A DNA stretch of 64,000 nucleotides from a virus, in IMG/VR virus record IMGVR_UViG_3300027881_000008, positions 11,009-75,008 of that record; one strand, written 5' to 3'. Below, one piece after another: positions 6,515 through 22,590 of the stretch. Numbering within the stretch: position 1 is the stretch's first letter; each line of letters starts with the position of its first letter. The position numbers and the translations under genes are program-made. The notes under the pieces were generated by a model, which was not told the origin of the DNA, ran no database searches, and saw nothing but the letters and a program-made list of their open reading frames with translations.

Positions 6515-7296
6515 GCCATATCCTCGACCGCCGTGCGCCGGAGCAGTTCATCCGTGAGCTGTCCCAAGAGGCGCGCCTCGTCCGTCAGGGCGCGGCAGGA
6601 CAGGAGGCCGGCCCCCCAGGGCTCGGTCCCGAGCCTGCGGTGGTCCATCAGCCGGGGGGCGAGCTCCTCAACAAAATCCAAGACCCGGCGTTCGATACGG
6701 TCGAGCATCTTTTTCGGGCGCTCCCCGAGGACAGTTGGTTCTCCCCTACCACCTCGACCAAGCGCCCCATCAAGTTCGAGTTCGGCGTCTTCACCGTTCC
6801 CCAGAGCCAGTATTTTCTGGTGACCGACTACGAGTTCGTGGCGCTTCGGCAGAGCGGCATCGACCCCTTCGACTTCATGCAGGCGGCGCCGTACCGCTTC
6901 AGCGGCTTCATGGGGTTCGACATCACGCTCGATGGCCGGCGCGTGAGTAACCTCATGTACCAGCTCGACCCCGCCCCAGTGCAGTTCTTCCGTCAGGCGT
7001 TCGCGTCGCCCTTCGATCCTCGCGCGCCCGCCGCGAGCTTCAACCAAGCTGCGGCCAACAGCTTCGGCGCCGTGGCCGGCGAGGGCACGTCGCTCTTGCC
7101 CGTCCGCCCCAACGTACAGGGAAGCCGGAACATGCCCTTCACCATGATCGCCGAGCCTGGCACCAAGGTTGCGCTCTCGTGCGTCATCTTCCGCCGCGTG
7201 ACTGCCGCTCTCGCGGGCCTCCAGGCGAGCGTGTCTGGCTACTCGATCCACGCCAACACTATGAGCGCACTGCTCAACCGAATGAGGCCCAGATGA
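6511..7296 (+). CDS. putative third capsid-like jelly-roll protein
   Basis: ATGA overlap; FEFGVFTVPQSQYFLVTDYEF...PGTKVALSC...ASVSGY beta pattern. Confidence 0.45.
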   Translation: MSHILDRRAPEQFIRELSQEARLVRQGAAGQEAGPPGLGPEPAVVHQPGGELLNKIQDPAFDTVEHLFRALPEDSWFSPTTSTKRPIKFEFGVFTVPQSQYFLVTDYEFVALRQSGIDPFDFMQAAPYRFSGFMGFDITLDGRRVSNLMYQLDPAPVQFFRQAFASPFDPRAPAASFNQAAANSFGAVAGEGTSLLPVRPNVQGSRNMPFTMIAEPGTKVALSCVIFRRVTAALAGLQASVSGYSIHANTMSALLNRMRPR

Positions 7297-7520
7297 TGCA
7301 AGTAGGACCGCCGCCGCGAGGGTTTTATGGGATGGGAACCGACCCGCTTCTGCCGGGAGTCGTCCTCCCTGACTTGCCCGGTTACGTGACCGAGGAAAAA
7401 TGTTCTGCGGCCCAGTTGTCGGCTGAAGAAAAAGCCAAGGGCAGCGTGCTTCCCTGGGCGATTGGCGCCGGAGTCGGCGCCCTGGTTCTAGGACTCGCCA
7501 TAGGAAGGATGAGCAAGTGA
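7293..7520 (+). CDS. small C-terminally anchored membrane protein (FYGMG motif)
   Basis: ATGA overlap; PGYVTEE motif; TM helix then GRMSK. Confidence 0.7.
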   Translation: MMQVGPPPRGFYGMGTDPLLPGVVLPDLPGYVTEEKCSAAQLSAEEKAKGSVLPWAIGAGVGALVLGLAIGRMSK

Positions 7521-7957
7521 TGTACGGACTTGGAGAAAATGGAGCGCCTCCGGGCGGACCACCACCGCCCCCCACCCCCGGTGCCCCACCGGCCATACCC
7601 ACGCCGATCCCCGGGGCCACGGACCAGGCGAGCTGCGCGCAGCACGGCGGAACCTGGCAGGGACTCCCCCCGCCTGCGCCGCCGGGAATGGGCGTGTGTC
7701 TATCGGGCGCGTTGCCCCCCATTCCTGGGGCTCCCCCCGTACCAGGTGGCCTTCCGGCTCTTCCTCCGGGAGTCCAGAAGCCGGAGATCCCGGGATACGT
7801 GACGAAGGAGCACTTAGCCGCGTCGCTTCAGGGCGCCGCCACGCAGTGCAACACCGCGCGCGCCGAATCCAGGCGCATGTCCATCTACGTGGCCGTTGGT
7901 GTCGGCTTGGCGGGCGTGCTCATCGGTGCCGTCGTCGGAAAGAACATGAAGAAGTGA
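7517..7957 (+). CDS. Pro-rich C-terminally anchored membrane protein (MYGLG motif); paralogue of 7293-7520
   Basis: PGYVTKE motif shared with the previous gene; TM helix then KNMKK. Confidence 0.75.
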   Translation: MMYGLGENGAPPGGPPPPPTPGAPPAIPTPIPGATDQASCAQHGGTWQGLPPPAPPGMGVCLSGALPPIPGAPPVPGGLPALPPGVQKPEIPGYVTKEHLAASLQGAATQCNTARAESRRMSIYVAVGVGLAGVLIGAVVGKNMKK

Positions 7958-7959
7958 GA

Positions 7960-8071
7960 TTGACGAGCCGCAAGAGCCGGGCCCTCGGTTTGGTGTTCCG
8001 GGGGCTGTCCGCAAAAGTGATGGCCTTCCTCAGCCGCTCCGGCCGGGAGCTCGACTCTTGCGGCTCGTCGA
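7960..8071 (+). ncRNA. long rod-like intergenic hairpin (RNA-processing site or small RNA)
   Basis: Perfect 15-bp inverted repeat 7962-7976/8055-8069 extended by wobble pairs, with an internal bubble and apical stem-loop. Confidence 0.55.
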
Positions 8072-8090
8072 AACACGCGGGGGAGGCGTA

Positions 8091-9029
8091 ATGTACCGCG
8101 GCATAGGCCGGCCGCTGGGCGCGACCACGCGGGGCCTCGGTGCCCGAGAGTGGGACGACGTCCAGGAGTGGTGTCCTGGGGTGTTTGTGGAGTCCGAGAA
8201 GGACTTCTGTCCTTTTTCGCGCGCGCTTTGGTCGACCGACGAGGTCTACGTCATGCGCTTCCATGTTACTGGACTCGACGGAGGCATTCAGACGGCCTCC
8301 CAGGGGCTCAGGTGGGCGAACGCTTACGGCAACACGCTCATGACGGCGTGCCTGCCCTTCGGCTGTCCTTCCATCGAACGCCAAGACGTCAAGGGGATCG
8401 TGTTTGACAGTCAGGGCGGACCGGGCGTCTACGGCGTCGACCTCGTCGTGACCACGCAGGAGGGCGGTGCGCCCGTCTTTGGTCAGCGGGGGGTGGAAGC
8501 TACCGTTAAGATGCTCAACAAGGACCCGGACCTGCTCAGCGTCTGGCCGAATTTGCACGTAAACGACTTCCAGCCTCTTCTGATGCTCGACGAGACGGCA
8601 GCGCAGAAGGCTAGGATCACCGACTGGCGCGCAGCGCCGACGGTTTGGAGCTGGGAGCTTTGGGAACAGAACGAGGACGCGCCCGAGAGGACCAGGGGAA
8701 AGACCGACGCCTACGGAAAAGGCGAAGGGGTCTGGCTCGGTGGGACGGCGGCGCACCCCCAGGCGCGGCTCAAGCCCAAGGCGCCCACCCCCGTCGGTCC
8801 TCCCACGCCCAAACCTCCCACGCCCAAACCTCCCACGCCCAAGCCTCCCACGCCCAAGCCTCCCGAGCCGGGACCGTTGCCTTCCAAGGCCGGCCTCAAC
8901 GCGGGCACCGTTGCGGGGGTCGCCCTGGTCGCCGGGGTTGGATGGTTCGCTTTCGGCACACGTATTCGAGACCACCTGAGTGGCAAGAAGCAAAAGGAAA
9001 AACAGCATGTCCTACAAAAGCCTTGGTAA
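8091..9029 (+). CDS. virion membrane protein candidate (MYRGIG; PPTPK linker; TM)
   Basis: GGAGG SD; globular domain, (PPTPK)x4, KAGL, TM helix, basic tail. Confidence 0.75.
   Translation: MYRGIGRPLGATTRGLGAREWDDVQEWCPGVFVESEKDFCPFSRALWSTDEVYVMRFHVTGLDGGIQTASQGLRWANAYGNTLMTACLPFGCPSIERQDVKGIVFDSQGGPGVYGVDLVVTTQEGGAPVFGQRGVEATVKMLNKDPDLLSVWPNLHVNDFQPLLMLDETAAQKARITDWRAAPTVWSWELWEQNEDAPERTRGKTDAYGKGEGVWLGGTAAHPQARLKPKAPTPVGPPTPKPPTPKPPTPKPPTPKPPEPGPLPSKAGLNAGTVAGVALVAGVGWFAFGTRIRDHLSGKKQKEKQHVLQKPW
8799..8864 (+). repeat. 15-bp coding tandem repeat (PPTPK)x4
   Basis: CCTCCCACGCCCAAR x4. Confidence 0.9.
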
Positions 9030-9681
9030 CCCGCTCGGGTCTTACTACGAGTTCAGCCCCCACCAGGTTTTCGACGGGGTGGGCGAGTATTACGAAACAG
9101 CGCCCATGAGCGGGCTGGGGTCTTACTACGAGTTCAGCCCCCACCAGGTCTTCGGCGCCTTCGGGGCCGAGACGACCTTCAACGCCCAACAGGTCTGGGC
9201 CGACGCCCAGCTCGGTGGGAGCTGCTTCACGCCGGGAAACCCGAACTGGAAGAACGAGGCGATGCTGGGCACCTGCAACGCCGCTGGCGGGCGCGCCACC
9301 CGCGAAATCCAAGCGGCACTGAACACTCTCGGCTACTCCACTCCGCTCGACGGAAGGTTCCAGGGGGCCACGAGGGCGAACTGGAACAAGTTTATGGCCC
9401 AGCACGGGCTCTCGAGCGCAATCGGAGAGGTGCAGGAGCAGGGTCTCTTGCTTATCGAAGACCAGCTGCGCCAGGGCATCACCCCGGGGCCGGACGAGCC
9501 TAGGAAGACCAAGAAGGTCAACGGCAAGTACATCCCCGTCAACGGCGACTCCAAGGCCGGACTGGGGGCGGTGGCGGCCGTCGCGCTCGTGGGGCTCGCT
9601 GCCTTTGGCGGGTACATGGTCTACAAGAAAAAGAAAGGCGGCGCTAAGTCGCGCCGCCCGTTGGTGAGACTGAAGCCGTGA
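9007..9681 (+). CDS. peptidoglycan-binding-domain membrane protein with two GSYYEFSPHQVF repeats
   Basis: REIQAALNTLGY..LDGRFQGATRA (PG_binding_1-like); KAGL-TM-KKKK. Confidence 0.7.
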   Translation: MSYKSLGNPLGSYYEFSPHQVFDGVGEYYETAPMSGLGSYYEFSPHQVFGAFGAETTFNAQQVWADAQLGGSCFTPGNPNWKNEAMLGTCNAAGGRATREIQAALNTLGYSTPLDGRFQGATRANWNKFMAQHGLSSAIGEVQEQGLLLIEDQLRQGITPGPDEPRKTKKVNGKYIPVNGDSKAGLGAVAAVALVGLAAFGGYMVYKKKKGGAKSRRPLVRLKP

Positions 9682-9687
9682 GAAAGA

Positions 9688-9915
9688 ATGGAAACGAAAC
9701 ACATCATCCAGGTTTTGGAAGCAGCCAACCAGGGCTCGCCTCAGATCCTGCATGCTGCGGGCCGCGTGTTCGGATTGGGCGAGGCGGAGCGGGATGCGCT
9801 GGCGAAGCGGACGTTTCCGGCTTGGGCGGCGGGACTGCTTGGGATCTCGGTGGGGATCCTAGCGGGCGCAGCCATACAGCGGCGTTGGCCGGGGAAGATC
9901 CTTCCGGGGGCCTGA
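9688..9915 (+). CDS. small membrane protein
   Basis: Single TM helix followed by QRRW. Confidence 0.65.
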   Translation: METKHIIQVLEAANQGSPQILHAAGRVFGLGEAERDALAKRTFPAWAAGLLGISVGILAGAAIQRRWPGKILPGA

Positions 9916-9916
9916 T

Positions 9917-10459
9917 ATGAGCTACGTAGGACTAGGAAACGCTTTCGGGTCGACTGTCTCGTTACCAGCAGGGTTCGACGCGGGTAAACTCCCCTATTGC
10001 GGCACTGTGCGGGCCCTTCAAACCACGTTGGGCGGCATCGGCTACGACGTCGGCAAGGTAGACGGTAAGTGGGGGACGAATACGGCCAAGGGGGCCACCG
10101 CCTTCGCGCAGGCTAAGGGTCTGAACGTGAGCGGAGGCATTACCAAGAACTTCTGTCAGGCGCTGCAGAGCGAGTGGGTGGCCTCGATGGCTCCCCCGAC
10201 TCCCTCTGTCCCAGCGCCCCCGGCTCCAGTGCCGGGAGCAAAGGAACCGCCACCGGCGGGAAGGCACCCGGCTCCCCCCGCCGAAAAGGGGGCGGGGCCC
10301 GATCGACTTGACGCCTCGGGTGGCGCGCCCCCACCCCCCGTCAAGGCTGGGCTCTCGACGGGCGCTAAGGTCGCAATTGGCGGCGCGGCGCTCGTGGTCG
10401 TCTTCGGTGTCGTGGCAATCGCCAGCGGCTACGCCGACAAAGGGAGAACATCGCGGTGA
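9917..10459 (+). CDS. peptidoglycan-binding-domain membrane protein (MSYVGLG)
   Basis: VRALQTTLGGIGYDVGKVDGKWGTNT...FAQAKGL; Pro linker; KAGLS-TM. Confidence 0.8.
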   Translation: MSYVGLGNAFGSTVSLPAGFDAGKLPYCGTVRALQTTLGGIGYDVGKVDGKWGTNTAKGATAFAQAKGLNVSGGITKNFCQALQSEWVASMAPPTPSVPAPPAPVPGAKEPPPAGRHPAPPAEKGAGPDRLDASGGAPPPPVKAGLSTGAKVAIGGAALVVVFGVVAIASGYADKGRTSR

Positions 10460-11679
10460 ATTACACAGGAATAGGAATGCCCTTCGGCGCCTTCGGGCGC
10501 GTGCCCGAGGACCAGCCGTGTTGCGAACCGACCTGCGAGCAGCCGTGTCCTTTGGGCACCGGAACGCATTGCGGCAGCGTCTACGCCATGCAGACCATGC
10601 TTGGGGTCTTGGGCTTTCTCCATCCCCTCGACGAGACGAGCATCGACGGAAGGAACGGCCCGAAGACACGCGGGGCCGTGGCGGCCTACGCGCTGGCAAA
10701 AGGGATCCCCGTGGACCCGAACAAGCCGTCGGGCCTCTTCTGCGTGGCCCTGATCGCTGACTACAACGCCTATGTGGATCCTGGTCCCGGTGCGACCGAC
10801 CCCAACGAATGCGCCCCGGGCCAGTGGGGCGCCCCGCCCTTCTGCTTCGGCCAACCGTCGTCGGTGCCGCCCCCCCCCAAGGAGGCTGGCGCCTGCCCCC
10901 CTCCCACCGTGGGGCTCCCGCCTTACTGCGTGACGTTGCCCGGCGGAGGGGCTCCCCCCGTGCCACCGGGCGCCTCGGCGTGTCCACCCGGCACCCTCGG
11001 ACTACCCCCGCATTGTTTCGGCGTGCCTGGTGGCGTCCCTCCCACCACGCCTCCCGGGACTCCGCCAAAGCCCCCCCCAGGGCCAAAGCCCCCAGGGCCA
11101 AAGCCCCCGGGACCCAAGCCCCCGGGACCCAAGCCCCCGGGACCCAAGCCTCCCGCAGGACCCCCGCCCCCGACCCCAGGTCCCGTGCCCGCAAACGGGT
11201 TCTGGGAAAGCCGGAGCGACGGAGAGAAGGCGCTACTGCTAGGCGGCGGCGCTGCTGTCGGCTTGCTCTTGGTGGCTGCTCTGATGTCAGGCAGGCGCCG
11301 AAAGCCCAGCTCTAAGAAGCTCCCCGCGCTGACCTCCAACCCTAGAGGGCGCCGAAAGACGAAGCGCCGCCGGGCAAAGCTGCGCAAGGCTTCCAAGCGC
11401 CGCACCAAACGCCGCACCAAGCGCGTCCGCCGCAAGAAGAAGTGGGCCCAGGCAGTCGACCGGAGCATGCAAGAGCGCGGCACCGTCGGGTCTTTCACCA
11501 AACAGGCCCGCAACGCCGGCTACTCGGACACCATGGAGTTCGCGCGCAAGGTGATGGCCGGCTGGAGAGACGGAAGCAAGACCGTCTACAACAAACGGAC
11601 GCGCCGCAACATGCGGATCACCAAGCGCACCATGTACCGCGCCAACTTCGCTATCAACATCCAGAAGCGTCGGCGTTAG
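10456..11679 (+). CDS. peptidoglycan-binding, Cys/Pro-repeat membrane protein with basic C-terminal domain (MNYTGIG)
   Basis: VYAMQTMLGVLGF...IDGRNGPKTRGAV; three CxPxxxGxPPxC repeats; (KPPGP)n; TM; LTSNP then Arg/Lys-rich domain. Confidence 0.75.
   Translation: MNYTGIGMPFGAFGRVPEDQPCCEPTCEQPCPLGTGTHCGSVYAMQTMLGVLGFLHPLDETSIDGRNGPKTRGAVAAYALAKGIPVDPNKPSGLFCVALIADYNAYVDPGPGATDPNECAPGQWGAPPFCFGQPSSVPPPPKEAGACPPPTVGLPPYCVTLPGGGAPPVPPGASACPPGTLGLPPHCFGVPGGVPPTTPPGTPPKPPPGPKPPGPKPPGPKPPGPKPPGPKPPAGPPPPTPGPVPANGFWESRSDGEKALLLGGGAAVGLLLVAALMSGRRRKPSSKKLPALTSNPRGRRKTKRRRAKLRKASKRRTKRRTKRVRRKKKWAQAVDRSMQERGTVGSFTKQARNAGYSDTMEFARKVMAGWRDGSKTVYNKRTRRNMRITKRTMYRANFAINIQKRRR
11065..11154 (+). repeat. 15-bp coding tandem repeat (KPPGP)n
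   Basis: AAGCCCCCRGGRCCM about 5 copies. Confidence 0.85.
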
Positions 11680-11688
11680 GAGACCCTC

Positions 11689-12378
11689 ATGACCGTACCC
11701 GCATACACCAACATCGCCCACTTTCGAGCCCCTTACAAAAACTCCTACGTCTACACAGGGGTGGGTCAGGACGACGTGCCCGTGGGACCCCCAGGCGGTC
11801 CGCCCCCGCCAGACGATACGGACCCAGCTCAAAAGGAACTGATGAAGCACATCACCGTCGGTAAGAGCGGCGAGCTGAGCTGGAACACCGACACGGCCAA
11901 CCTCATCCGAAAGGCCCTGAAGGGGTACGGAACGGTCCACCTGTCCAACGAGGCGGTCGAGGTTATCCCGTTCACCCCGGTAGAGATCAACGCTGCGATG
12001 ACGGACCCGAAACTGGCCGCCCTCCTCAAGGCCCGTAGCGGGGCCACCTGGGTGGACCAACGCGCCGCAGAAGGGAAGGTGGTCTTCGCCTCCGTGGGGA
12101 TGTTCGTACCAGGCGCAGGGGCCAAGAACCTAGCGGCCCTGGACCCCGGTGACCGCGAGCGAGTGGACGCCACGTCGCGGGTGATGCCCATCGTCGCCCT
12201 GCCTGGCGCCGTCACTCCCCCCACTCCTACGCCAGGAAAGGTTACCCCCACCTCGAAGGCTTCGATCTTCGACAGTCCGACGGCGTTGGCCGTGGGAGTC
12301 GTGGTGGTGGGCACCGTTTCTTTCGTCGTTTACAAGGGCTTCCAGAGTAAGAAGAAGCTCCCCCCCCTCAAGGTTTGA
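11689..12378 (+). CDS. C-terminally anchored membrane protein, paralogue family member 1
   Basis: AGGAG SD; YTGVG motif; Pro/Thr linker; TM; KKK tail. Confidence 0.75.
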   Translation: MTVPAYTNIAHFRAPYKNSYVYTGVGQDDVPVGPPGGPPPPDDTDPAQKELMKHITVGKSGELSWNTDTANLIRKALKGYGTVHLSNEAVEVIPFTPVEINAAMTDPKLAALLKARSGATWVDQRAAEGKVVFASVGMFVPGAGAKNLAALDPGDRERVDATSRVMPIVALPGAVTPPTPTPGKVTPTSKASIFDSPTALAVGVVVVGTVSFVVYKGFQSKKKLPPLKV

Positions 12379-12381
12379 GCC

Positions 12382-13596
12382 ATGGCGTCCCTATCCTCCA
12401 CATCTCGCGCGTCGGACTCCGCTAAGGACGCGGCTGCCCTAGTCGGCCAACTCGTTCAGGTGCGGGCGGAGGGGGCGGCTACGGGGAGCCAAGACGCTGC
12501 GGTCGACGCGGCCATCGGGACCGACTCGAGCCATTGGAGGAAGAATGTGCGCGCCACGTTGGGCCAAACCGTGGCCCAGTCGGGGCGCCAGCAAGCGGCC
12601 GTGACTGCCGGGTACGTGGCGGATACTCTCCGAGGGTCGACGAACATTCCTCAACCCACCGTGGTCGCTATTTTGCGCGCGGACCTAGAGCGAGCCGAGA
12701 GAGAGGTCACCGACGCGGCGGCCGGTGCTTCGCGCTACCAACTGCCGCGCGACTTTGCGAGGGTAAAAATGAAAAACGAAATGACCTCAGAATCAATAGC
12801 TCCAAGCCAGACGGTCGCCACGGCGCGCCTCATCACCCGGCCGTCCACGGTCGCGCTCACCTATCCGGCCACCACCTCAGTACCTTATCCAGGCCCCACA
12901 TCAGACCCCATCGTGGGCGCCAACGGGGGGCTAATCCCCAACGGCAATGGGGGGAGCGACGTCGCTGGGCCCGACCTCAATGGGTTCGAGACCCTCTTCC
13001 CCGGGGGCTTCGCCGCTGGCGTCGTCGAGCCGGCGACGTGCAACGGATTATCCTACATGCGCATCGCTCCAGGTCACGCCGCGGCGGTCGCGCAGACGCT
13101 GAGCCAAGCGATGGCGACCCCCGACTTCTGCTCGGTCGTGCAGTGCCCCCCGGGCAAAGACGGCAAGATCAGCTCGGTGTTCTGTATGGCGGACGCCGAA
13201 GCCATAGCGGCCAACGAGGCGCAGCCGGTCGGACCTCTGCTAGCGAAGCTCCGGGCCGAAGGTCGCGCCTGCGTGCTCATCGCAGCTGAGCCCTTTGGCA
13301 CCTGCCTCGCCGGCGTTCCCCCTACGGGCCTCCCTGACATCGCGGGGAAAGGGTTCCACGCCGTGGTGCTGAGCGAGCCGACGGGGGGCTGGCAGCCGCC
13401 GTGCGGCGGTGCGCCGGTTCCCAAGCCTCCCGCTCCACCGACCCCCACCGCCACAGCGGGGATGAGCACGGGCACGAAGCTCCTCTTGGGGGGGATCGGC
13501 CTGGGCCTGGTGGGCACCGTGGTCTACCTAGCCACCCGCGACATGAAGAAGAAGTCGCCCTCCCTCACCTCCAACCGCCGCCGCCGACGTAGCTGA
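12382..13596 (+). CDS. C-terminally anchored membrane protein, paralogue family member 2
   Basis: Pro linker; AGMS-TM; tail ending LTSNRRRRRS. Confidence 0.75.
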   Translation: MASLSSTSRASDSAKDAAALVGQLVQVRAEGAATGSQDAAVDAAIGTDSSHWRKNVRATLGQTVAQSGRQQAAVTAGYVADTLRGSTNIPQPTVVAILRADLERAEREVTDAAAGASRYQLPRDFARVKMKNEMTSESIAPSQTVATARLITRPSTVALTYPATTSVPYPGPTSDPIVGANGGLIPNGNGGSDVAGPDLNGFETLFPGGFAAGVVEPATCNGLSYMRIAPGHAAAVAQTLSQAMATPDFCSVVQCPPGKDGKISSVFCMADAEAIAANEAQPVGPLLAKLRAEGRACVLIAAEPFGTCLAGVPPTGLPDIAGKGFHAVVLSEPTGGWQPPCGGAPVPKPPAPPTPTATAGMSTGTKLLLGGIGLGLVGTVVYLATRDMKKKSPSLTSNRRRRRS

Positions 13597-13608
13597 TGAA
13601 GGAGTGAG

Positions 13609-14235
13609 GTGAATGTGCATGGGATTGCTGGCATCCAGGGGCTCGGCCAAACGGCGGACCCGAACGCGCGCTTGGGCGCTGCCATGCATTCCGTGGAGCT
13701 TCTCGGACACCAACGCTTTGCCATAAGGCCGAAAGACCGCGACGCGGTCGTCGAGTCCCTGCGGGGGTGGACCCTGGTTAAGACGCTCGACCACGCGGGG
13801 ATAGCGTTCGCGGCTGCCAAACGTGAGGCCCCAGGCGCGTCCCTCTACGAGTGGGCCAGCGGCCAGAACGATACCGGCCGGGGGATCCTTCTGCGGGGAA
13901 ACCCCTTCGCCACGGCACCCAACTCGGAGCTGATGGCGTACGCCACCCGGTACTGGGACCTGGGCTTCGCGGGGCCCGCCGTACCCTACATCCTGCTAGA
14001 CCCTCCCCGGGGGTGGCGCCATAGCAACCTGCCGGACGCCAACGACGACCCTCGGCCGCCCACGTCCCAGGCGGGTGTTGCCTCGGGGCCTAGGTTGGTC
14101 TTCGCGGTGCTCGCCTTCGCCACTGTTGGCTTTTTCGTCTGGGCCTTGGGAAGAACAAAGGGCGCCACCCGAAGCACCTCAGTCAGCACAGGCTCCCGCG
14201 GGGCGCCTCGTTTGAGCCTGACCTGGCCGGCTTGA
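13609..14235 (+). CDS. C-terminally anchored membrane protein, paralogue family member 3
   Basis: AAGGAG SD; IQGLG motif; TM near the C-terminus. Confidence 0.75.
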   Translation: MNVHGIAGIQGLGQTADPNARLGAAMHSVELLGHQRFAIRPKDRDAVVESLRGWTLVKTLDHAGIAFAAAKREAPGASLYEWASGQNDTGRGILLRGNPFATAPNSELMAYATRYWDLGFAGPAVPYILLDPPRGWRHSNLPDANDDPRPPTSQAGVASGPRLVFAVLAFATVGFFVWALGRTKGATRSTSVSTGSRGAPRLSLTWPA

Positions 14236-14982: not shown

Positions 14983-14988
14983 CCACCC

Positions 14989-15612
14989 GTGATCCAACAG
15001 TTTCTCGGTCAGTTGTTTGGGCAAGCGGCCCAACACGCGGCGCGCCACGGCGGTCTGGAGGACCCCGAGGTACGTCGCGGGTTGCAGGTATTGGGGAATA
15101 TCCAGCAGCACCTCTACGGCCGCTGGCTTCAGGCTCGGTCTACGCGGGTGGCCTGTTCGATCCGCCTCAACCACCCTCAGCACGGGGTGCTCCGCTGCGC
15201 AGAGTCGATGGCTGGCCTGTGCACCGCGTGCGACAATCCCGTGTGCATCGAACACGCTGCCGTCGTGGTGGCGACGGGCGACCCGGTGTGCTTCGCGTGC
15301 ATCGACCTGGCGCGCGCTGCGGTCACCGAGCGCGGACACGCTGTGCCGCCCGGCTCGTCGACCGGCGCGGCTGACGAGATAGACGCCAAGCAACGGACGA
15401 AGCTGCGGCGCAAGTACCTTCGGCGCCTCGGACTGAAAGCCAACGCCGACCAGGCTCAGATAAACGCGGCCTTCAAGAAGAAAGCCGCAGCGGCTCACCC
15501 GGATAAGGCGGCTCCTGGTCCGGCCAGGGACCGAGCGCATGAGCGCTTCGTCGAGCTCGGGCGTGCCCGCGAGTGGCTGCTCGAGGACTTGGAAAAGAGG
15601 GAGGCAGCGTGA
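14989..15612 (+). CDS. zinc-finger plus C-terminal J-domain protein
   Basis: CxxC..CxxH..CxxC cluster; LGL...INAAFKKKAAAAHPDK...FVELGRAREWL (HPD motif). Confidence 0.85.
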   Translation: MIQQFLGQLFGQAAQHAARHGGLEDPEVRRGLQVLGNIQQHLYGRWLQARSTRVACSIRLNHPQHGVLRCAESMAGLCTACDNPVCIEHAAVVVATGDPVCFACIDLARAAVTERGHAVPPGSSTGAADEIDAKQRTKLRRKYLRRLGLKANADQAQINAAFKKKAAAAHPDKAAPGPARDRAHERFVELGRAREWLLEDLEKREAA

Positions 15613-15995
15613 CGAAACGCCGTGCCGAGCTAAAGGATAGTCTGCGCGCAGCGGCCATGTTCCGCGTGTTCCAGCCACTGGACGCGGCGGGGATCGCGCC
15701 GGTTCCCGCACCCATAGGCGTCACCAACTGGGCGGTCTTCGACATCGAGGGATATACGCCCTCGGACGCCGTTGTGACACGCCTCGACGAGCTGGGAATA
15801 GCGACTCTCGATTACGAGCCCCAGCGCGACGACGCCGAGGCGCCTGACGACTTCGACGACTCAGACGCGGCGATTGAAGCGCTTTTGGACGGTTGGTGGC
15901 TGTGCGTCGTGCCCGATACTCTGCGGTCTCCCTATTCCCGCCTCCTGGTGGTGGAGCGGGTGACCCCACCTTCCCGCATAGGAGCGAAACCGTGA
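15609..15995 (+). CDS. hypothetical protein
   Basis: GTGA overlaps at both ends; GGAGG SD. Confidence 0.6.
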   Translation: MTKRRAELKDSLRAAAMFRVFQPLDAAGIAPVPAPIGVTNWAVFDIEGYTPSDAVVTRLDELGIATLDYEPQRDDAEAPDDFDDSDAAIEALLDGWWLCVVPDTLRSPYSRLLVVERVTPPSRIGAKP

Positions 15996-16519
15996 AGTAC
16001 GAATTGTTTTACGCGACCGGCGGCCATGGCGGTCCCTACGAGGGAAAGGCCGCGGCCTTGGAGGCAGCACGCAGACTCGTCGGCGGTGCTAACGGCAGCT
16101 ACATCGACGTCGTCCCCTACTCCCAGCCCTGGGAAGCGACCCCGGTGCGTGACCTGCACCTCCTGCGGGGTGTCGAGCGCGTGTACGCTGCACCTGACGG
16201 CTGGTATTCTGAGGAGTACGAGACTCTAGCCGACAAGATGTTCGCGGAGCGGAACCCAGGCGCGAGAGCGGCGGAGTCCATCTACGTCATGAAGGCCGGG
16301 GAGGGCAACTACTACGCTCGCCGCACCACCAAGCCTCCGAAGTACCTGCGCTGGGAGTTGCAGCTACCCGACCCGCGCTCGTGGGGAGGCGGGATGAAAA
16401 GGGCGCACTACCGCCCGGCCGGCGGAAAGCTCTACTCACGCTCCGGTCTCAGCGCGCGCTTCGAGACCCTCAAAGAGATTAAGAAAGCCTACCCCGGCGA
16501 CTGGCGGAAGGTCCAATGA
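15992..16519 (+). CDS. two-domain hypothetical protein joined by ERNPG
   Basis: AGGAG SD; GTGA overlap. Confidence 0.65.
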   Translation: MKYELFYATGGHGGPYEGKAAALEAARRLVGGANGSYIDVVPYSQPWEATPVRDLHLLRGVERVYAAPDGWYSEEYETLADKMFAERNPGARAAESIYVMKAGEGNYYARRTTKPPKYLRWELQLPDPRSWGGGMKRAHYRPAGGKLYSRSGLSARFETLKEIKKAYPGDWRKVQ

Positions 16520-16794
16520 CCTACTCCCACCAGCAGCAGCAGCAGCACCAGCCCTACGGCCAAATCCCTGGTCTCCCCGTCCCCGGCGCTCCGGTGGGGG
16601 ACGAGGTCTTGAAGGACGTCTCGGTGCGAGCGTTCGAGCATATCTGGCCGCTAATGGAGACGCGCCTCGACGAGAAGCTCGCGCGGGAGCGGTACGTGAC
16701 GTTTGCGATGAGCGGGCTCGCCATGGCGGGATATTTTGCACTGCTGTGGGCGGTGGGCGTCAAGCTCCCGTGGCAGCGGAAATGGCGACGATAG
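16516..16794 (+). CDS. small membrane protein
   Basis: Poly-Q N-terminus, TM, basic C-terminus. Confidence 0.7.
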   Translation: MTYSHQQQQQHQPYGQIPGLPVPGAPVGDEVLKDVSVRAFEHIWPLMETRLDEKLARERYVTFAMSGLAMAGYFALLWAVGVKLPWQRKWRR

Positions 16795-17184
16795 ATGGCA
16801 TCGTACCGACCCAACTACTGGAACAACTACCCCGAGCCTTTCTACGCGGACTGGCAGCAGGAACCGATCCCCGGGTGGGGCGCCCGCCCGGTCATGGCGG
16901 GCCCAGCTCGCGTGGGGGTGGGCGCCATGATCAGCTTGGCCAAAGAGCAGAAGCTTTCGTCGCACCTTACGTTGGCCAGGATAAAGCCCCACACGTTGGC
17001 CAGGATAAATCCCCACGCGATTGTGCGGCTGCCCGGATTCGTGGGAAAGCCGCCGGCCGACGAGGGAGGAGGCGGAACCACCCCTTCAGAGCCGTCGTCC
17101 GGTCTGCGCTGGTTTATCGCGGGTGCGCTCGTCTTGTCGGTCGGCGGCATCGGCTTCTACCGTGGATGGAAGGGAAAGCGATGA
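16795..17184 (+). CDS. C-terminally anchored membrane protein
   Basis: YRPN and VGVG motifs; TM then YRGWKGKR. Confidence 0.7.
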   Translation: MASYRPNYWNNYPEPFYADWQQEPIPGWGARPVMAGPARVGVGAMISLAKEQKLSSHLTLARIKPHTLARINPHAIVRLPGFVGKPPADEGGGGTTPSEPSSGLRWFIAGALVLSVGGIGFYRGWKGKR

Positions 17185-18542
17185 GCTACCAGGGGATAGG
17201 CGCGCCGCCGGGGATGACACTGCTAGGCGGCGGCGCTGGCGCAGTAGGGCGCCGTGACCTCGGCGCAGTCGATGACCGGCCGGGGATGGCACTGCTAGGC
17301 GGCGGCGCTGGCGCAGGCTGTTCGCTCGGGTACGAGCTGTCGGGGATGGACCCGCAGAGCGCTTCGTGCCCCGGGGGCGGTTGCGACTCGGATTATTGCT
17401 GCTCTCCCCGAGACTGGCGCGACTCGGTTTATTGGAAGCTCAAGGGCGCGGTAAACTACGCGTACTTTCAAGAGGCATCTATCCGCAAATCTCTCTACCA
17501 GCTCCTCGACGTCCCTACCCCCACCGGGTTTCCGAGTCGTCTGGACGAGTACGCCTACGACGCCTGCGGGGACGAAGAGGGCCCAGCCTTTACGCAGAGT
17601 CTCGAGGCGCTGCGGGCGCGCCTCAAGCGCGCCGGGTTTAACCTGTGGAATATCTTGCCCCCCGACCGCTGGTCCCGCGAAAAGAAAGGGGTGCGCTCGG
17701 AGTGCCAGAGCGACGGCTGGCTCAGCCAGATGCGTGCTCCCTATCCCTACAAGATCAGCGGCGGGGGCTTCATGGCGCGGTTGGCCTACTGGCGCGACGG
17801 CCCCATCGAGGGAGAGCGGGCGAAGTCCGTCTACAACGTTACGGGCGGCCATCCTGGCGCCTTCAAGGACTGGCTGGCCGACAAGGCGATTCCCCTGATC
17901 GCGACTTCGCCGACGAGCACTCGTATCGAGAACTCGTCCTTCAACCCGGATGGATACGACTCTGGCGGCGACCCTAGGTGGAAGGCCAAGGCGCCGTGGG
18001 CGCTGGTGGACCGTTGGATAGGCACCACCGCGCCGGCAGAGATAGCCCCGCTCATGCTCACCTGCGGTCCCAACTCCCGCCTGGGGGGCTGCTCCGGGTG
18101 CGAGGCCCCACCCGACCGTTGGGCGGCGCAGCACGGCGGCGACCCAGGCAACCGAGTCACGATGCGCGATATGGGGAAAGCCCCCTCGATGCGCTGGTGG
18201 GCTCGCTTCTTGGACGTGTTCGCCCCTTTGCCCGACGTGGGCTGGGAGCCTGCGACGAAGGCCGGTCGCGCTGCCCAACAAAGCCGCTTCGTTCTCGCTA
18301 AAACGCCGGGGCGGGTGGCGGCCCACAGCGCTTCTCTTCCTTCGCTGATGGCGGTTAGGAAGCCAGCCCCTAGGTTCGTGGCTTCGGACGAAGGGATCGA
18401 GCGGCGCGTCGGGGGCGGCACCCCGCCGGCACCGCCGGGCAAAAGCGCCACACAAGGAGCTGTCCCATGGGTCCTGGCGGGACTTGTTGGGGCGGGCTTG
18501 GTTGGCGGCGGCGTGTGGTATTGGAGGAGCAGGGATGTATAG
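17181..18542 (+). CDS. Cys-rich surface/spike-like membrane protein, paralogue A (MSYQGIG)
   Basis: ATGA overlap; C-terminal TM + WYWR; near-identical blocks shared with the next gene. Confidence 0.75.
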   Translation: MSYQGIGAPPGMTLLGGGAGAVGRRDLGAVDDRPGMALLGGGAGAGCSLGYELSGMDPQSASCPGGGCDSDYCCSPRDWRDSVYWKLKGAVNYAYFQEASIRKSLYQLLDVPTPTGFPSRLDEYAYDACGDEEGPAFTQSLEALRARLKRAGFNLWNILPPDRWSREKKGVRSECQSDGWLSQMRAPYPYKISGGGFMARLAYWRDGPIEGERAKSVYNVTGGHPGAFKDWLADKAIPLIATSPTSTRIENSSFNPDGYDSGGDPRWKAKAPWALVDRWIGTTAPAEIAPLMLTCGPNSRLGGCSGCEAPPDRWAAQHGGDPGNRVTMRDMGKAPSMRWWARFLDVFAPLPDVGWEPATKAGRAAQQSRFVLAKTPGRVAAHSASLPSLMAVRKPAPRFVASDEGIERRVGGGTPPAPPGKSATQGAVPWVLAGLVGAGLVGGGVWYWRSRDV

Positions 18543-18955
18543 AGCAGTGGGAAAGCCGCCAGGGGTCGGTTTGGGATCGTTTGGTCCCGGCACCGCAGGC
18601 GCAGGCCCCGGCTGCAGCTTGGGCTACGAGAGGGGGGGGATGGAGCCCGAGAGCAAGGACTGCCCTACCGGGGGGTGCGACAGCGAGTTCGGCGACGCGA
18701 GGGACTGTTGCGGCGTCTCACATTGGCGAGATTCTGTCTACCACAGGATCAAGGGGGGGCAAGCCTATCAGTACTTCCAAGAGGCGGCCATTCGGAGGGC
18801 CCTTTACGACCTGCTCGACGTCCCTACCCCCACCGGGTTTCCGAGTCGTCTGGACGAGTACGCCTACGACGCTTGCGGGGACGAAGAGGGCCCAGCCTTT
18901 ACGCAGAGTCTCGAGGCGCTGCGCGCGCGCCTCAAGCGCGCCGGGTTTAACCTGT
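17505..18955 (+). repeat. 142-bp near-identical direct repeat (17505-17646 and 18814-18955)
   Basis: CTCGACGTCCCTACC...TTTAACCTGT with 2 mismatches by eye. Confidence 0.9.
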
Positions 18956-20097
18956 TCTCGATCCTTCCCCATAGCCGATGGTTCGTGGACGCCACCGGGA
19001 CCAAGAGTCCCAAAGCCATCGACGTCGTGCACTTGGCCCCGTGTAGCGACTCTCAAGAAGACGGCTGGTACAGCAAGCGTCGCGTGTACCCCTACCTGAA
19101 CGACGACTTCGTTCGGGTCAAGGTGAAAGGAAACGACGGCAAGTACCGGTGGGTCGTGAAGCCTCGCGGCACGACGACGGAAAACAAGAAGTATCCGTGG
19201 GACACGGGAGAAAGGGAAGGGGGGGAGCCCGTTTGCGCCCGGCAGGACGGGGGTTGGACCGCGCACCCCGCCATGTCCACCATACCCGGTGGGAGTAATC
19301 TGTTCGGCCCTGAAAACTCGGAACTCAAAAAGGGCTTCAAGAACCCCTGCATCGGGGGCGCGCCGACCGTCAACAAAGAGATGGCGATATTTAACGTCAC
19401 GGGCGGCAAGCCGGCCAAGTTCTGGGACTGGTGGGAGGACTTCGGAAAACCCCTCATTCGTTTCTCCCCCATCAGCAGCAGGGAACACCACTATGGGGGA
19501 CACCGAGACGCCTCTGCGACGCCGCGCTGGAAAGCGTGGAACCCCGAGCAAACGGAGAAACGGTTCACGGGCACCGTAGGTCCGGCTGAGGTGGCCCACC
19601 TCATGCTCACCTGCGGGCCCAGTTCGCGCTATGGAGCCTGCTCCGGGTGCGAGGCGCCAGCCGACCGTTGGGCGGCGCAGCACGGCGGAGACCCAGGCAA
19701 CCGAGTCACGATGCGCGACATGGGGAAAGACATCTCGATGCGCTGGTGGTCGAGGTTCTTGGACGTTTTCGCCCCTATGCCTGACGTGGGCGGCGGCGCC
19801 CCGAAAATCGACACGAGCAAGCTGAAGGCCGGGCTGAAGTTGTTCACCGCGCCGAAGAAGGGAGCGACTGGGATTTCTATCCACGGGCAGATCGCTCCAG
19901 GTGCATTAAAAGCTGCGAGCATGGCTGTTTCGAGGCGGCCTGCCCCGGTGTTAGTGGCCCACGACGAGGGCTCCGTAGACGCCCCTCCACTGCCCCCAGC
20001 GCCTGCTCCCAAAAGCAACGTCCCCTACATTCTGGGTGGCATCACGGCGGTCGGCCTGGTCAGCGTAGGGGTCTGGTATTGGAGGAAGGATGTATAA
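18535..20097 (+). CDS. Cys-rich surface/spike-like membrane protein, paralogue B (MYRAVG...GLG)
   Basis: GGAGG SD; same constant blocks; longer variable middle; TM + WYWR. Confidence 0.75.
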   Translation: MYRAVGKPPGVGLGSFGPGTAGAGPGCSLGYERGGMEPESKDCPTGGCDSEFGDARDCCGVSHWRDSVYHRIKGGQAYQYFQEAAIRRALYDLLDVPTPTGFPSRLDEYAYDACGDEEGPAFTQSLEALRARLKRAGFNLFSILPHSRWFVDATGTKSPKAIDVVHLAPCSDSQEDGWYSKRRVYPYLNDDFVRVKVKGNDGKYRWVVKPRGTTTENKKYPWDTGEREGGEPVCARQDGGWTAHPAMSTIPGGSNLFGPENSELKKGFKNPCIGGAPTVNKEMAIFNVTGGKPAKFWDWWEDFGKPLIRFSPISSREHHYGGHRDASATPRWKAWNPEQTEKRFTGTVGPAEVAHLMLTCGPSSRYGACSGCEAPADRWAAQHGGDPGNRVTMRDMGKDISMRWWSRFLDVFAPMPDVGGGAPKIDTSKLKAGLKLFTAPKKGATGISIHGQIAPGALKAASMAVSRRPAPVLVAHDEGSVDAPPLPPAPAPKSNVPYILGGITAVGLVSVGVWYWRKDV

Positions 20098-21787
20098 AGG
20101 TATCTGGGTGCCGCCGGGGATGGGCGCGTACGACGACTCTCCCGACGAGGCGGACTGGGGACATCGCAAGGTGCCCTCGCCAGCCTACCCTTGGGACGGG
20201 TGGGACAAAACTGGCAAGCACCCTGACGCGGCGGACTTCGGCTACGACACCGCCTCGGCCTATAGCCTTCTTGACGACGGCTTCCTCAACGAACAGACGA
20301 AGATCGCGCTACCCGGGATGCCAAACACCGGCGAGTTGATACAGCTGGTGGGACCACCTTCCCAGTCTGCGGTTCTCGGCGTCAGGTCGGCTCTCGAAGG
20401 GGCGACGGGGCTGCCCGTGGACAAGATCGCTTCTACCATGGGGGTCGACCTCGGCCTCATGGGGTCGATGGTGGGCAATCTGGTAAGAGGAGAGACCGAG
20501 GTCGCCCAACAACAGGCGCTCCAAATGGGAAAGGGGATCCTGAAGGCGGGGCTAGACCTCGCCTTTGGAAACATCCCAATCGTCGGGCAGATCGTAGGGA
20601 TCGCCGCCGACGTCGTGTTCGCTTTGCTGGGAAACGCGGCGAAGTTCCAAGCGGAAAAAATTCACAAGGCGACGCTCGATCAGGTGAGGAAAGAGCTGCA
20701 GAGCCGCTGCGACACGCTTTACTCGATAGGCCAAAATCCCGTGAAGACGGGGATCTCACTAGGGGACGGTTCCCTGATGGCCACGCCCTCCGACTTGTTC
20801 CGCCCGGTGAGGGAAGCCTACGAATCTGGGAGCGGCGTATTGCCGATGACACCCGCGTCTGTCTACGTGCTCCTGTGCGGCGCGGAGAGCCAAGGGTTTG
20901 GCTTCTCCCGCCAGGAATGGGAACAAAAGAACGCGGGCTACGGCATCACAATACCGCCCCCGGTCCAGCGGCGGATGTGGAAGTGCATCAAAGCGATCTT
21001 CTCAGCGGTCCAACATCCCAGTGCGCAGTACGTTCCGGGCGACGGCGGCAAGTCGTCTTACATGGTCGTCCAAGAACTGGTGCGTACGCAGAGGGAGTCA
21101 AACAACTTCTCCGAAAGATCGATCTGGATGCTCGCCACCGAGCTCGCCGCCCGCGTCACCTATTGGCACCCTGACCCCAAGAAGGAAGAATGGGGCCCTT
21201 CAGGAGCCGGCGAGTACAACCGATACTACGGGGGAAACTGCTCCGGCACCGTGATGTGGCACGGCGCGGGCGGTCAGGGGGAGGAGTGCTTCAAGCGTGG
21301 CGGCTGCCAGACCCCCCAGGTGGTCTTCAAGAAGACGCGCGGGCGCTACATGGAGTGGGAGAAGGCCGAGAAAATCTCGGGCCCGACCGATTTCGCAGTA
21401 GCTCCTCTCGTGCGCGCCATAGCATCTCCTCAGACGGGCACCTTCTGGGTCGGTCAGGGCAAGTGGGCCGCGCTCATGCGCGAAGCTTACAGGGACCCCA
21501 AAAGCGGGCGCTTGGGCCTTTACCCGAACGAGAAGTTCGTGGCCGCACAGGGTCTCGACCAGCCCCGGGAGGCCAACAGCAAGCTGACTTTGAGCCTCGC
21601 GGGCACCCAACACCTCGTCATGAACCTGAAGAAGTCCATCGACGTTCAGGACGAGGGAGCCGAGGGGGAAGAGGAAGGCCCCAGCTTGGTTCCGTGGGTG
21701 TTGGGCACCGCCGTTCTTGGCACCGGAGCCTACTTCGGGGCCCGACAGCTGGGGCGGATGGGACGGAAAAAGGGCTGGGGGAGATAA
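20090..21787 (+). CDS. large membrane-anchored protein with internal hydrophobic hairpin (possible membrane-penetration/ejection protein)
   Basis: MYKGI..PGMG start; NIPIVGQIVGIAADVVFALLG segment; C-terminal TM. Confidence 0.65.
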   Translation: MYKGIWVPPGMGAYDDSPDEADWGHRKVPSPAYPWDGWDKTGKHPDAADFGYDTASAYSLLDDGFLNEQTKIALPGMPNTGELIQLVGPPSQSAVLGVRSALEGATGLPVDKIASTMGVDLGLMGSMVGNLVRGETEVAQQQALQMGKGILKAGLDLAFGNIPIVGQIVGIAADVVFALLGNAAKFQAEKIHKATLDQVRKELQSRCDTLYSIGQNPVKTGISLGDGSLMATPSDLFRPVREAYESGSGVLPMTPASVYVLLCGAESQGFGFSRQEWEQKNAGYGITIPPPVQRRMWKCIKAIFSAVQHPSAQYVPGDGGKSSYMVVQELVRTQRESNNFSERSIWMLATELAARVTYWHPDPKKEEWGPSGAGEYNRYYGGNCSGTVMWHGAGGQGEECFKRGGCQTPQVVFKKTRGRYMEWEKAEKISGPTDFAVAPLVRAIASPQTGTFWVGQGKWAALMREAYRDPKSGRLGLYPNEKFVAAQGLDQPREANSKLTLSLAGTQHLVMNLKKSIDVQDEGAEGEEEGPSLVPWVLGTAVLGTGAYFGARQLGRMGRKKGWGR

Positions 21788-21811
21788 CCAACCACCTGTA
21801 AGGAGCGAACA

Positions 21812-22054
21812 ATGAGCGAAAAAATGAACTGGATACAAAAGCTGTCACATAGGAAAGACCCGGGGCGAGACGCCTTCGACGCGGCCCAGAAGGCGGCCCA
21901 GGAGGCGGCCGGTAAGGCGCCTGTCCAAGAGGCCGAGGCTGACCCTGTCGTGGTAGCCGAGCCCGATCCGGCTCCCGAGCCCGAACCCCCAGTTGAGGTG
22001 GCGCCCGAGCCCGAGCCCGAAAAGCCCAAGCGCGGCAGGTCGCGAAGGCGGTGA
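21812..22054 (+). CDS. small Glu/Pro-rich protein with basic tail
   Basis: AAGGAG SD; EPEP repeats; KPKRGRSRRR. Confidence 0.7.
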   Translation: MSEKMNWIQKLSHRKDPGRDAFDAAQKAAQEAAGKAPVQEAEADPVVVAEPDPAPEPEPPVEVAPEPEPEKPKRGRSRRR

Positions 22055-22590
22055 GTTACGTCGGAGTGGGCAAGCCCCCCGGCGGCGGTGGCCGTGGCGG
22101 CGGTGGCCGTGGCGGCGGTGGCCGTGGCGGTGGAGGGCACGCGGGTATGGGTCCCGGTCCTGGTCCTGGGCCGCATCCTGGGCCCCATCCTCACCCTCAC
22201 CCTCATCCCGGGCCCGGCCCCCATCCTCACCCGGGCCCTCACCACCGGCCTGGCTGGGGTAGGCGCCGTCGGCGGCTACGGTGGGGCGGCTATGCGCCGC
22301 CTGGCTACTACGACACCACGCCGTGGTACTTCACAACCGGCGACCAGTGCAGCTACTACGGAGGCCGGAAACAATGCGTATTGGCGGGTCCCAACGACTA
22401 CGGGGGCGACCCCTTCTGCGACCCTGGTTGGGTGAGGCGGTGCATCGTACCGCTCGGCAGTTGCGCCAGTCTGGGCGGGTACAAGCAGTGCATCCCTCTC
22501 CTTGCCGGCGACCCGCCTGATCCTCTATGTCCAACCGGGAACTCACGCCAGTGCGTGCTCCCTCCGCTTCGAGGCGGCTACACATGGTAG
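22051..22590 (+). CDS. Gly/Arg, His/Pro and Cys-repeat protein (MSYVGVG)
   Basis: (GGGGR)x3, (GPHP)n, poly-R, two C..GG.KQC...DP.C..G..R.C repeats. Confidence 0.7.
   Translation: MSYVGVGKPPGGGGRGGGGRGGGGRGGGGHAGMGPGPGPGPHPGPHPHPHPHPGPGPHPHPGPHHRPGWGRRRRRLRWGGYAPPGYYDTTPWYFTTGDQCSYYGGRKQCVLAGPNDYGGDPFCDPGWVRRCIVPLGSCASLGGYKQCIPLLAGDPPDPLCPTGNSRQCVLPPLRGGYTW

Follow-up and report, generated by a model that had tools for sequence, protein, structure and literature searches.

How membrane-containing phages pick the membrane proteins of their virions and couple the protein shell to the membrane is an open question. It arises at a locus of IMG/VR virus record IMGVR_UViG_3300027881_000008 (G000 below; 75,008 bp), of which the 64,000 nucleotides from base 11009 to base 75008 were analysed (the window; coordinates are window positions unless marked genome). 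Here, an array of membrane-anchored proteins with different heads displays variants of one short N-terminal peptide, the core of which reads (M)(S)Y-x-G-Φ-G, where Φ is a hydrophobic residue, and the G-Φ-G part of this tag recurs in the tail of a large basic protein that we call the core protein. The tag is enriched at the N-termini of proteins anchored by a C-terminal helix, conserved in orthologues and confined to the structural membrane-anchored proteins of a whole family of related viruses. In the reading that we tentatively favour, and to which we give somewhat less than an even chance, it would be a short linear docking or sorting motif on the side of the virion membrane that faces the capsid.

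The tagged genes lie in a plus-strand block at 1.9-23 kb in which the majority of genes have no Pfam or PHROG family (Table 1). Nine of them, within 7520-22590, start with M(S/N)Y-x-[G/A/S]-Φ-[G/W] (7520, 8091, 9007, 9917, 10456, 17181, 18535, 20090 and 22051), and four more carry the core motif at most 45 residues from their start (7293, 11689, 13609 and 16795). All 13 sites that an initial annotation of this DNA had listed as a shared leader are present as read. A purine run resembling a Shine-Dalgarno sequence stands 7-11 nucleotides 5' of most of the nine tagged starts; at 9917 this run is weak and the start adjoins the upstream stop directly.

Genes were called with a self-trained codon model that is blind to the motif, and the N-terminal pattern ^M[SN]?Y.{1,2}[LIVMAF][GW] was counted against an expectation from its internal frequency. 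It occurs 6, 7 and 5 times in G000 and its relatives G001 and G004, respectively, against 0.31, 0.86 and 0.74 expected. When these three records are pooled, 15/115 C-terminally anchored proteins carry it against 3/424 others (Fisher test, 1.8e-8), and at 17 further loci an M[STN]?Y start is found in 55 of 228 anchored proteins against 6 of 213 others (8e-12). Over 24 related records, tyrosine occupies residue 2 or 3 in 109/368 anchored proteins and in 32/683 others (residue 2: 35 against 5; residue 3: 74 against 27); overall, tyrosine makes up 3.1% of the residues in anchored proteins. Shuffling residues 2-40 of the 368 anchored proteins yields 1.5 +/- 1.2 full motifs (maximum 8 in 2000 shuffles) against 35 observed. 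The excess over a glycine-rich background and the unequal frequency in other proteins both bear out the initial annotation. Aligned on the tyrosine, the tags give the logo Y - x - G/A/S - V/L/I/M - G - A/N/G/P - G/P - P/G - G, and they often continue into further Φ-G or aromatic units. The tyrosine at residue 2 or 3 is the most conserved element of the tag in the family, ahead of G-Φ-G. Anchored proteins contain 1.58 G-Φ-G per 100 residues within their first 10 positions and 0.28 past residue 160; in non-anchored proteins the value is about 0.3.

The tag also outlasts the sequences that it precedes. Proteins being named after the first position of their gene, the G001 orthologues of gp9007, gp9917 and gp20090 begin with MSYGGVGSYYTLPG (MSYGGVG), MYAGLG and MYGLGVPP; they are 27-46% identical to their G000 counterparts, with tips kept and heads diverged. 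The G001 orthologue of gp11689 begins with MYSGVPAYTEISHFRAPYKN, and P0275, 47% identical to gp17181, with MSYQGIGMPFG. Retention of the tag in orthologues at 28-60% identity agrees with the initial annotation. Word-based homologue searches with gp20090 and gp17181 returned one or two relatives each, among them P0122, which is N-terminally truncated.

Could such a tip simply be a relic of duplicated-gene ancestry combined with translational coupling at ATGA/GTGA overlaps, without a dedicated function? Several carriers are paralogous, the 5' codons are A/T-rich, and the codon of the residue-2 serine is AGC or AGT in 44 of the 55 genes with an MSY start, a consequence of the overlap (ATGA) between the start codon and a TGA stop. 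The serine is thus partly a by-product of coupling, and the tyrosine the selected residue; the same count weakens the idea that the serine was selected to put mature N-termini in one register after methionine excision. The codons of the motif vary otherwise (GGA/GGC/GGG/GGT for glycine, TAC/TAT for tyrosine, CTA/ATA/CTT/GTG/ATC for Φ), which indicates that the constraint acts on the peptide. We regard a functionless relic as very improbable. Tyrosine stands at residue 3 in just 27 of the 683 non-anchored proteins, many of which presumably have the same coupled starts; orthologues of 28-47% identity retain the tip although their heads have diverged past recognition; shuffling yields 1.5 motifs against 35 observed; and the internal repeats of the core protein cannot be attributed to constraints at start sites.

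The carriers share a layout made of a variable head of 50-540 residues, a proline-rich stalk (11% proline across the 40 residues preceding the helix), one hydrophobic helix and a short basic tail. The helices were located with a Kyte-Doolittle window, a rough predictor of transmembrane (TM) segments, and sit at most 30 residues from the C-terminus, with the exception of gp10456 and its 130-residue tail. The TM flanks carry a mean charge of +0.17 before the helix and of +2.08 after it. In gp10456, the single TM helix separates the tagged head from an Arg/Lys-rich tail of 130 residues, a layout that would place the tag on the membrane face opposite the basic, presumably DNA-binding, segment. The initial annotation had described the carriers as unrelated proteins without a Sec signal peptide. 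The heads are indeed diverse, but gp17181 and gp18535 are paralogues and three heads share a peptidoglycan-binding domain (PG_binding_1). The second statement holds: throughout the family a hydrophobic N-terminal window was found in only 14 of 356 anchored proteins, which speaks against a Sec-type signal, and no array protein of G000 has a TM-like window in its first 40 residues; the hydrophobic stretch of 10-15 residues expected of Sec, Tat and lipoprotein signals is thus missing. Among cysteine-containing heads, 140 have an even and 58 an odd number of cysteines, against 189 even and 290 odd for the other proteins of those records. Despite the absence of a signal peptide, these even counts point to disulfide-bonded heads that meet an oxidising environment.

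These properties bring an export or insertion signal into consideration: the tag, possibly with a J-domain protein encoded within the array and host DnaK, would promote translocation of the head across the cell membrane or hand the C-terminal anchor to an insertase. The heads look extracytoplasmic, as judged from the three PG_binding_1 domains and the cysteine parity, the TM flanks obey the positive-inside rule with the C-terminal tail inside, hydrophobic N-termini are scarce, and a J-domain gene is conserved, whose product is a candidate chaperone adaptor that may recruit host DnaK to signal-less anchored proteins. The extreme N-terminal placement would also suit a signal that is read on the emerging chain. 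We nevertheless hold this explanation to be unlikely, since no known bacterial export route uses a non-hydrophobic N-terminal signal of 6-7 residues and since it leaves the 4-11 internal G-Φ-G copies in the core tail (see below) unexplained. Moreover, the tag is absent from many anchored proteins, and the disulfides could arise after particle release.

The core protein offers a second context for the motif. Its tail (nucleotides ~3700-4335) contains about eight G-Φ-G copies (YSGYG, FDGVG, SGFG, AGYG, AGLG, GAMG, KGIG and AGVGAFG), among them all those noted in the initial annotation, and the basic half of the G000 protein contains none. In the core proteins of 14 relatives, the C-terminal 330 residues contain 4-11 copies and the basic half 0-2. 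The repeat units, [LFY]xQAAAG-Φ-G and G-Φ-G-E-Y-[FY], stand in tandem with 5-12 low-complexity residues between them, and also appear in the N-terminal regions of anchored proteins (QAAAGMGE, GMGEYFA, AAGLGEY). In G000, an identical peptide of 23 residues, GSYYEFSPHQVFDGVGEYYETAP, is found in the core tail (~3775-3843) and at residues 11-33 of gp9007 (9037-9105); in G001, the peptide common to the two proteins is GSYYTLP instead. Over 12 records, a comparison of core tails with N-terminal tags for concerted evolution detected no general excess (mean shared peptide 5.25 residues against 4.96), and the shared 23-mer of G000 is a special case. Copies arranged in tandem, 5-12 residues apart and without domains between them, would suit avidity binding to a lattice rather than the release of domains.

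Units of the motif (AAAGLGN, SGMGEYT and a C-terminal ASGFGSGPDGLGQ) also occur in a protein of 342 residues that lacks an anchor and is encoded beyond the window, on the minus strand at genome 799-1827; BLAST found no orthologue of it in G001 or G004.

The initial annotation had compared the tag with the cleavage sites of the adenovirus protease and of poxvirus I7, and had seen no protease in the window. The analogy with these enzymes fares poorly. The (M/I/L)XGX-G site of the adenovirus protease resembles the tag in that several precursors of virion proteins of this jelly-roll virus share an X-G-X-G core; here, however, the P4 position is tyrosine instead of Met/Ile/Leu, the site lies at residues 2-7, a cut after the motif would remove just 5-7 residues, proline follows the motif in about one case in nine (10/90), and the core repeats read A-A-A-G-Φ-G. 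Peptidase_C48 and C5 (PF02902, PF00770) gave no match at E<=0.1 in G000, G001, G002 and G004, PF03290 not being among the families searched; the HK97-type prohead protease family S78 (PF04586) is absent from the same four records, in a search that did not include the T4 gp21 family. No peptidase family appears among 25 of the 42 Pfam families of G000 or 25 of the 50 of G001, so that a weak peptidase hit could lie among the others.

That the window itself contains no protease is correct; a papain-fold enzyme is encoded on the same contig, 8.1-8.8 kb upstream of the window (L005:2255-2881:-, genome 2255-2881, minus strand), and processing of the tag therefore stays conceivable. This 208-residue protein has 367 homologues and an invariant D-C-D...H...D signature (C136, H168 and D185). 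Forty-six of 59 homologues match Transglut_core (PF01841) and one matches Peptidase_C93, the G000 protein itself falling below the Pfam threshold. The AlphaFold2 (AF2) model has a mean predicted local distance difference test score (pLDDT) of 90.7 and, with a Foldseek probability of 1.0 to transglutaminase-like proteins, shows a papain-fold, transglutaminase-like protein with a Cys-His-Asp triad. In structural comparisons its closest match is the putative protease 3kd4 (VIA Z 12.8, 137 residues aligned, root-mean-square deviation 2.9), followed by factor XIII, TG2 and TG3 (Z 11-12), PNGase (10), LapG (9.0) and PeiP (8.9). The gene is kept in G001 (60% identity) and G004 (45%), beside the arrays of anchored genes. 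As to its chemistry, the protein is a candidate protease, cross-linker, amidase or cell-wall isopeptidase.

If it were a protease, it might cut at G-Φ-G during maturation, removing N-terminal hexapeptides and chopping the core tail. A hydrophobic P2 followed by a small P1 is what papain-fold enzymes prefer, an enzyme with an invariant triad and a putative protease as closest structural match is kept beside the anchored-gene arrays in G001 and G004, and the vaccinia protein A17 is both docked and cleaved. LapG, which is near the 208-residue enzyme in size and fold, cuts LapA between two alanines in the N-terminal retention module of this surface protein and leaves AGPSAAG (PMC3032545), a product formally similar to QAAA-G-Φ-G; LapG differs in being periplasmic, calcium-dependent and paired with LapD, and other transglutaminase-fold proteins score above it. 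Maturation cleavage as the role of the tag nonetheless strikes us as rather improbable. Cross-linking transglutaminases, PNGase and the cell-wall isopeptidase PeiP have this fold just as well, so that a protease activity is only putative. The loss of merely 5-7 residues has no obvious purpose, and no domains lie between the tandem sites of the core tail. Cleavage would explain neither the conserved tyrosine nor the fixed N-terminal position, and in 10 of 90 cases a proline follows the motif.

If the enzyme were instead a cross-linker, the glutamine of QAAAG-Φ-G and free N-terminal amines could be its substrates; alternatively, the Tyr/Gly tips might associate with each other into a matrix layer. 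The glutamine is invariant in the core repeats, factor XIII, TG2 and TG3 are taken here as the closest folds, and the tips are low-complexity sequences rich in tyrosine and glycine (GSYYEF, GEYF). N-terminal tags, however, mostly lack Gln and Lys, and nothing indicates which partner would supply the amines; such a cohesive role appears to us a long shot.

What the tag might dock onto depends on the virion, and two putative capsid genes are located upstream of the array. The product of capsid gene 1 has more than 633 metagenome homologues, none of them named and none with a Pfam domain. Its AF2 model is a beta sandwich (pLDDT 66.8) with weak structural matches to a capsid protein of SPV1 (Z 6.3, 127 residues), VP17 of P23-77 (Z 5.0) and HCIV-1 (Z 4.4), all from viruses that contain a membrane, among other jelly rolls. 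Foldseek returned no match at E<=0.001 for this model, its list being merely thematically rich in jelly-roll capsid proteins. Weak as they are, these matches are consistent with the jelly-roll type of shell that covers internal membranes. Capsid protein 2 is 43-57% identical in G001-G004 and has no Pfam or PHROG family; tblastn against the phage collection gave no match, and a look-up in the ESM Atlas found unnamed viral clusters only.

The relatives are IMG/VR contigs of 95-182 kb recruited via the two capsid-like genes. Two of them, G001 (143.7 kb) and G004 (136.2 kb), are rated as complete genomes and carry direct terminal repeats; G000 is linear with a CheckV completeness of 52% and a G+C content of 65%. 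Outside the array, whose proteins matched only PG_binding_1 and DnaJ in Pfam and PHROGs, G000 encodes DnaB- and Toprim-type replication proteins, SNF2 helicases, a NUDIX protein, a lysin with PG_binding_1 and Amidase_2 domains, an SLT protein, GT4 glycosyltransferases and, according to Pfam, a C5 DNA methylase and a Mom-like protein. This gene content (replication, lysin, methylase and others) indicates a virus of bacteria. Homologues of the capsid genes on contigs of metagenome-assembled genomes (L021-L026) are assigned to Pirellulales (2), Pseudomonadota, Gemmatimonadota and Methanomicrobiales, probably through mis-binning. Altogether, these are probably large (75-180 kb), membrane-containing, tailless viruses of bacteria that form a new family; no description of the family or of the tag was found in the literature searched.

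The closest precedent for a docking tag comes from poxviruses. With the tyrosines of its N-terminal tail (MSYLRYYN), vaccinia A17 plugs a cavity of the D13 double-jelly-roll scaffold trimer, in the base that faces the membrane, and an artificial MSYYHHHHHH end also occupies this cavity (PMC13672803); processing of A17 subsequently frees the scaffold (PMC8971458). The present viruses likewise combine (M)SY tips on membrane proteins, a capsid gene with a jelly-roll-like model and a candidate cysteine enzyme. The differences are substantial: the host is a bacterium, no homology to A17, D13 or I7 is apparent (general Pfam scans turned up no hit of A17/D13/I7 type, and no direct comparison was made), about 10-20 tail-anchored carriers plus tandem internal copies correspond to a single two-pass protein in A17, the A17 tail lacks G-Φ-G, and the candidate enzyme is transglutaminase-like instead of Ulp1-like.

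By analogy with this system, the docking reading would run as follows. The virion membrane proteins would be made without a signal peptide and held by a single C-terminal helix with its short basic tail, leaving the free (M)(S)Y-x-G-Φ-G tip to face away from the basic, DNA-binding segments. Tyrosine and hydrophobic side chains of these tips, and of the repeats in the flexible core tail, would be exposed by the flanking glycines and could insert into pockets of a common multivalent partner. The most plausible partner is the jelly-roll lattice of the capsid or scaffold, at its base towards the membrane. Docking would gather the anchored proteins into a virus-specific membrane and tether that membrane to the shell, and the transglutaminase-like Cys-His-Asp enzyme may afterwards trim or fix the tethers, docking and subsequent trimming being compatible. 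A more specific version, which we judge possible and still less probable than docking as such, is a sorting code between coat and cargo: the tyrosine tips and the G-Φ-G repeats would plug the base of the capsomers, so that the shell selects the membrane proteins and pulls a membrane patch round the genome before the transglutaminase-fold enzyme cuts or locks the tethers.

We favour docking because the tandem copies of the core tail resemble an avidity binder of a lattice, because the tag appears to lie on the non-DNA face of the membrane, because it is confined to structural membrane proteins and because of the vaccinia precedent. The initial annotation had left the choice between a virus-wide propeptide, a cleavage site and a capsid-docking tag; the virus-wide character extends to the family, with the limitation to structural membrane-anchored proteins, and it is the docking option that the analogy with A17-D13 favours (PMC13672803). 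Short targeting peptides have other parallels. The capsid targeting sequence of T4 is formed by the first 10 residues of IPIII (IPII and IPI being alike); it is enough to bring a protein into the head, and the head protease later cuts it off (PMC9026906). As here, about 10 N-terminal residues are common to otherwise different virion proteins, whereas the T4 cargo is soluble, enters the scaffold core of an HK97-fold head and is cut at L/I-x-E; the tag described here has another sequence and is carried by membrane proteins. The encapsulin targeting peptide (DGSLGIGSLKG) binds a shell pocket via two hydrophobic residues split by a glycine (PMC7925596). It is a short Gly/hydrophobic peptide containing a literal G-I-G, but it is C-terminal, requires no tyrosine and addresses soluble cargo to a non-viral HK97-fold shell, in contrast to an N-terminal tag and a jelly-roll shell candidate.

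Several points weigh against docking. The capsid assignment relies on a model of middling confidence (pLDDT 66.8) and on structural matches with Z scores of 4.4-6.3, in the range that the tool calls 'common'. Terminase, portal, A32-type ATPase and prohead protease families were not detected in G000, G001, G002 and G004, the Pox_A32 and Terminase_6N searches being empty in all four; with no packaging ATPase, terminase or portal recognised in these records, the virion architecture itself is a deduction. The core protein has two or three helices, and the side of the membrane on which its tail would lie is accordingly uncertain. An N-terminal tyrosine is present in only ~25-40% of the anchored proteins and a G-Φ-G within 30 residues in about one third, so that the tag is not obligatory. 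Finally, the positive-inside rule, the even cysteine counts and the peptidoglycan-binding heads fit exported heads equally well, which favours an export signal.

Short virion-targeting peptides are a known kind of signal; the literature searched contained no description of this tag sequence, of such a tag on tail-anchored membrane proteins or of the virus family, and no sorting signal for particles of the PRD1, PM2 or sphaerolipovirus type was found there. If the sorting code between coat and cargo were true, the tag would be the first signal known to sort proteins into the virion membrane of a membrane-containing phage, and the system would be the equivalent, in a virus of bacteria, of the poxvirus A17-D13-I7 mechanism, by convergence or by common ancestry. 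The likeness to the MSY of A17 suggests that jelly-roll lattices might be tethered to membranes in such a way more generally. A portable tag of 6-12 residues on dozens of proteins in a widespread family makes the selection of virion membrane proteins testable, and might be used to attach foreign proteins to particles of this kind.

Table 1. Genes of the structural block and of the tagged array (window positions; TM, transmembrane helix).
Position	Strand	Product	Remarks
2002..4335	+	'Core' protein, 777 residues	N-terminal 470 residues very basic; 2-3 weakly hydrophobic helices at ~475-560; acidic/aromatic tail
4476..5270	+	Putative capsid protein 1, jelly-roll-like	Presumed partner of the tag
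5483..6514	+	Putative capsid protein 2, 343 residues, start MYGNQYDPGF	Always adjoins capsid gene 1
6511..7296	+	Third conserved structural protein, after both capsid genes	34-44% identity in G001 and G004; no Pfam family
7293..7520	+	75-residue tail-anchored protein, FYGMG at residues 11-15	C-terminal TM 52-70, 5-residue tail
7520..7957	+	145-residue tail-anchored protein, Pro-rich, MYGLG start	ATG one codon after GTG 7517; GGAAGGA 8-11 nucleotides upstream
8091..9029	+	312-residue tail-anchored protein, start MYRGIGRPLG..RGLG	PTPKP stalk, TM, basic tail; GGAGG 7 nucleotides upstream
9007..9681	+	224-residue tail-anchored protein, start MSYKSLGNPLG, PG_binding_1-like head	
9917..10459	+	180-residue tail-anchored protein, start MSYVGLGNAFG, PG_binding_1 head (Pfam E 6.6e-6)	
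10456..11679	+	407-residue protein, start (GTG)NYTGIGMPFGAFG (NYTGIG)	PG-binding and Cys-loop head, one TM (259-277), very basic 130-residue tail
11689..12378	+	229-residue tail-anchored protein, SYVYTGVG at residues 19-26	
13609..14235	+	208-residue anchored protein, GIQGLG at residues 9-14	
14989..15612	+	J-domain protein, Cys-rich (CxxC-type) N-terminal half, untagged	Pfam DnaJ E 1.8e-9; within the array; kept in G001 and G004
16516..16794	+	92-residue tail-anchored protein, MTY start	
16795..17184	+	129-residue tail-anchored protein, MASY start, ARVGVG at residues 38-43	Kept in G001 and G004
17181..18542	+	453-residue tail-anchored protein, start MSYQGIGAPPG, 10 Cys in head	
18535..20097	+	520-residue paralogue of gp17181, start MYRAVGKPPGVGLG (MYRAVG), 12 Cys in head	GGAGG 8 nucleotides upstream
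20090..21787	+	565-residue tail-anchored protein, start MYKGIWVPPGMG (MYKGIW)	
22051..22590	+	179-residue Gly/Pro/His-rich, Cys-rich open reading frame, start (GTG)SYVGVGKPPG	No TM

Some gene boundaries in the array deserve comment. For the gene at 18535, a TTG start at 18484 with a lipobox-like leader was rejected: it would overlap the previous gene by 59 nucleotides, and GGAGG stands 8 nucleotides before the ATG at 18535. The open reading frame at 22051 is an uncertain gene, the motif-blind caller having chosen another frame there. Overlaps of 8 nucleotides at 18535-18542 and 20090-20097 (ATGTATAG and ATGTATAA) join the three paralogous genes that start at 17181, 18535 and 20090, and GGAGG falls within the W-Y-W-R tail codons of the upstream gene.

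Two further regions of the window stand apart from the array. Between 32000 and 42000 the G+C content rises to 70-73% and small genes are numerous, and this segment may be a separately acquired module. On the plus strand at 48855-52451, a protein of 1198 residues, kept in G001 and G004, has a phage-integrase domain in its middle only and is unusually large for a tyrosine recombinase.

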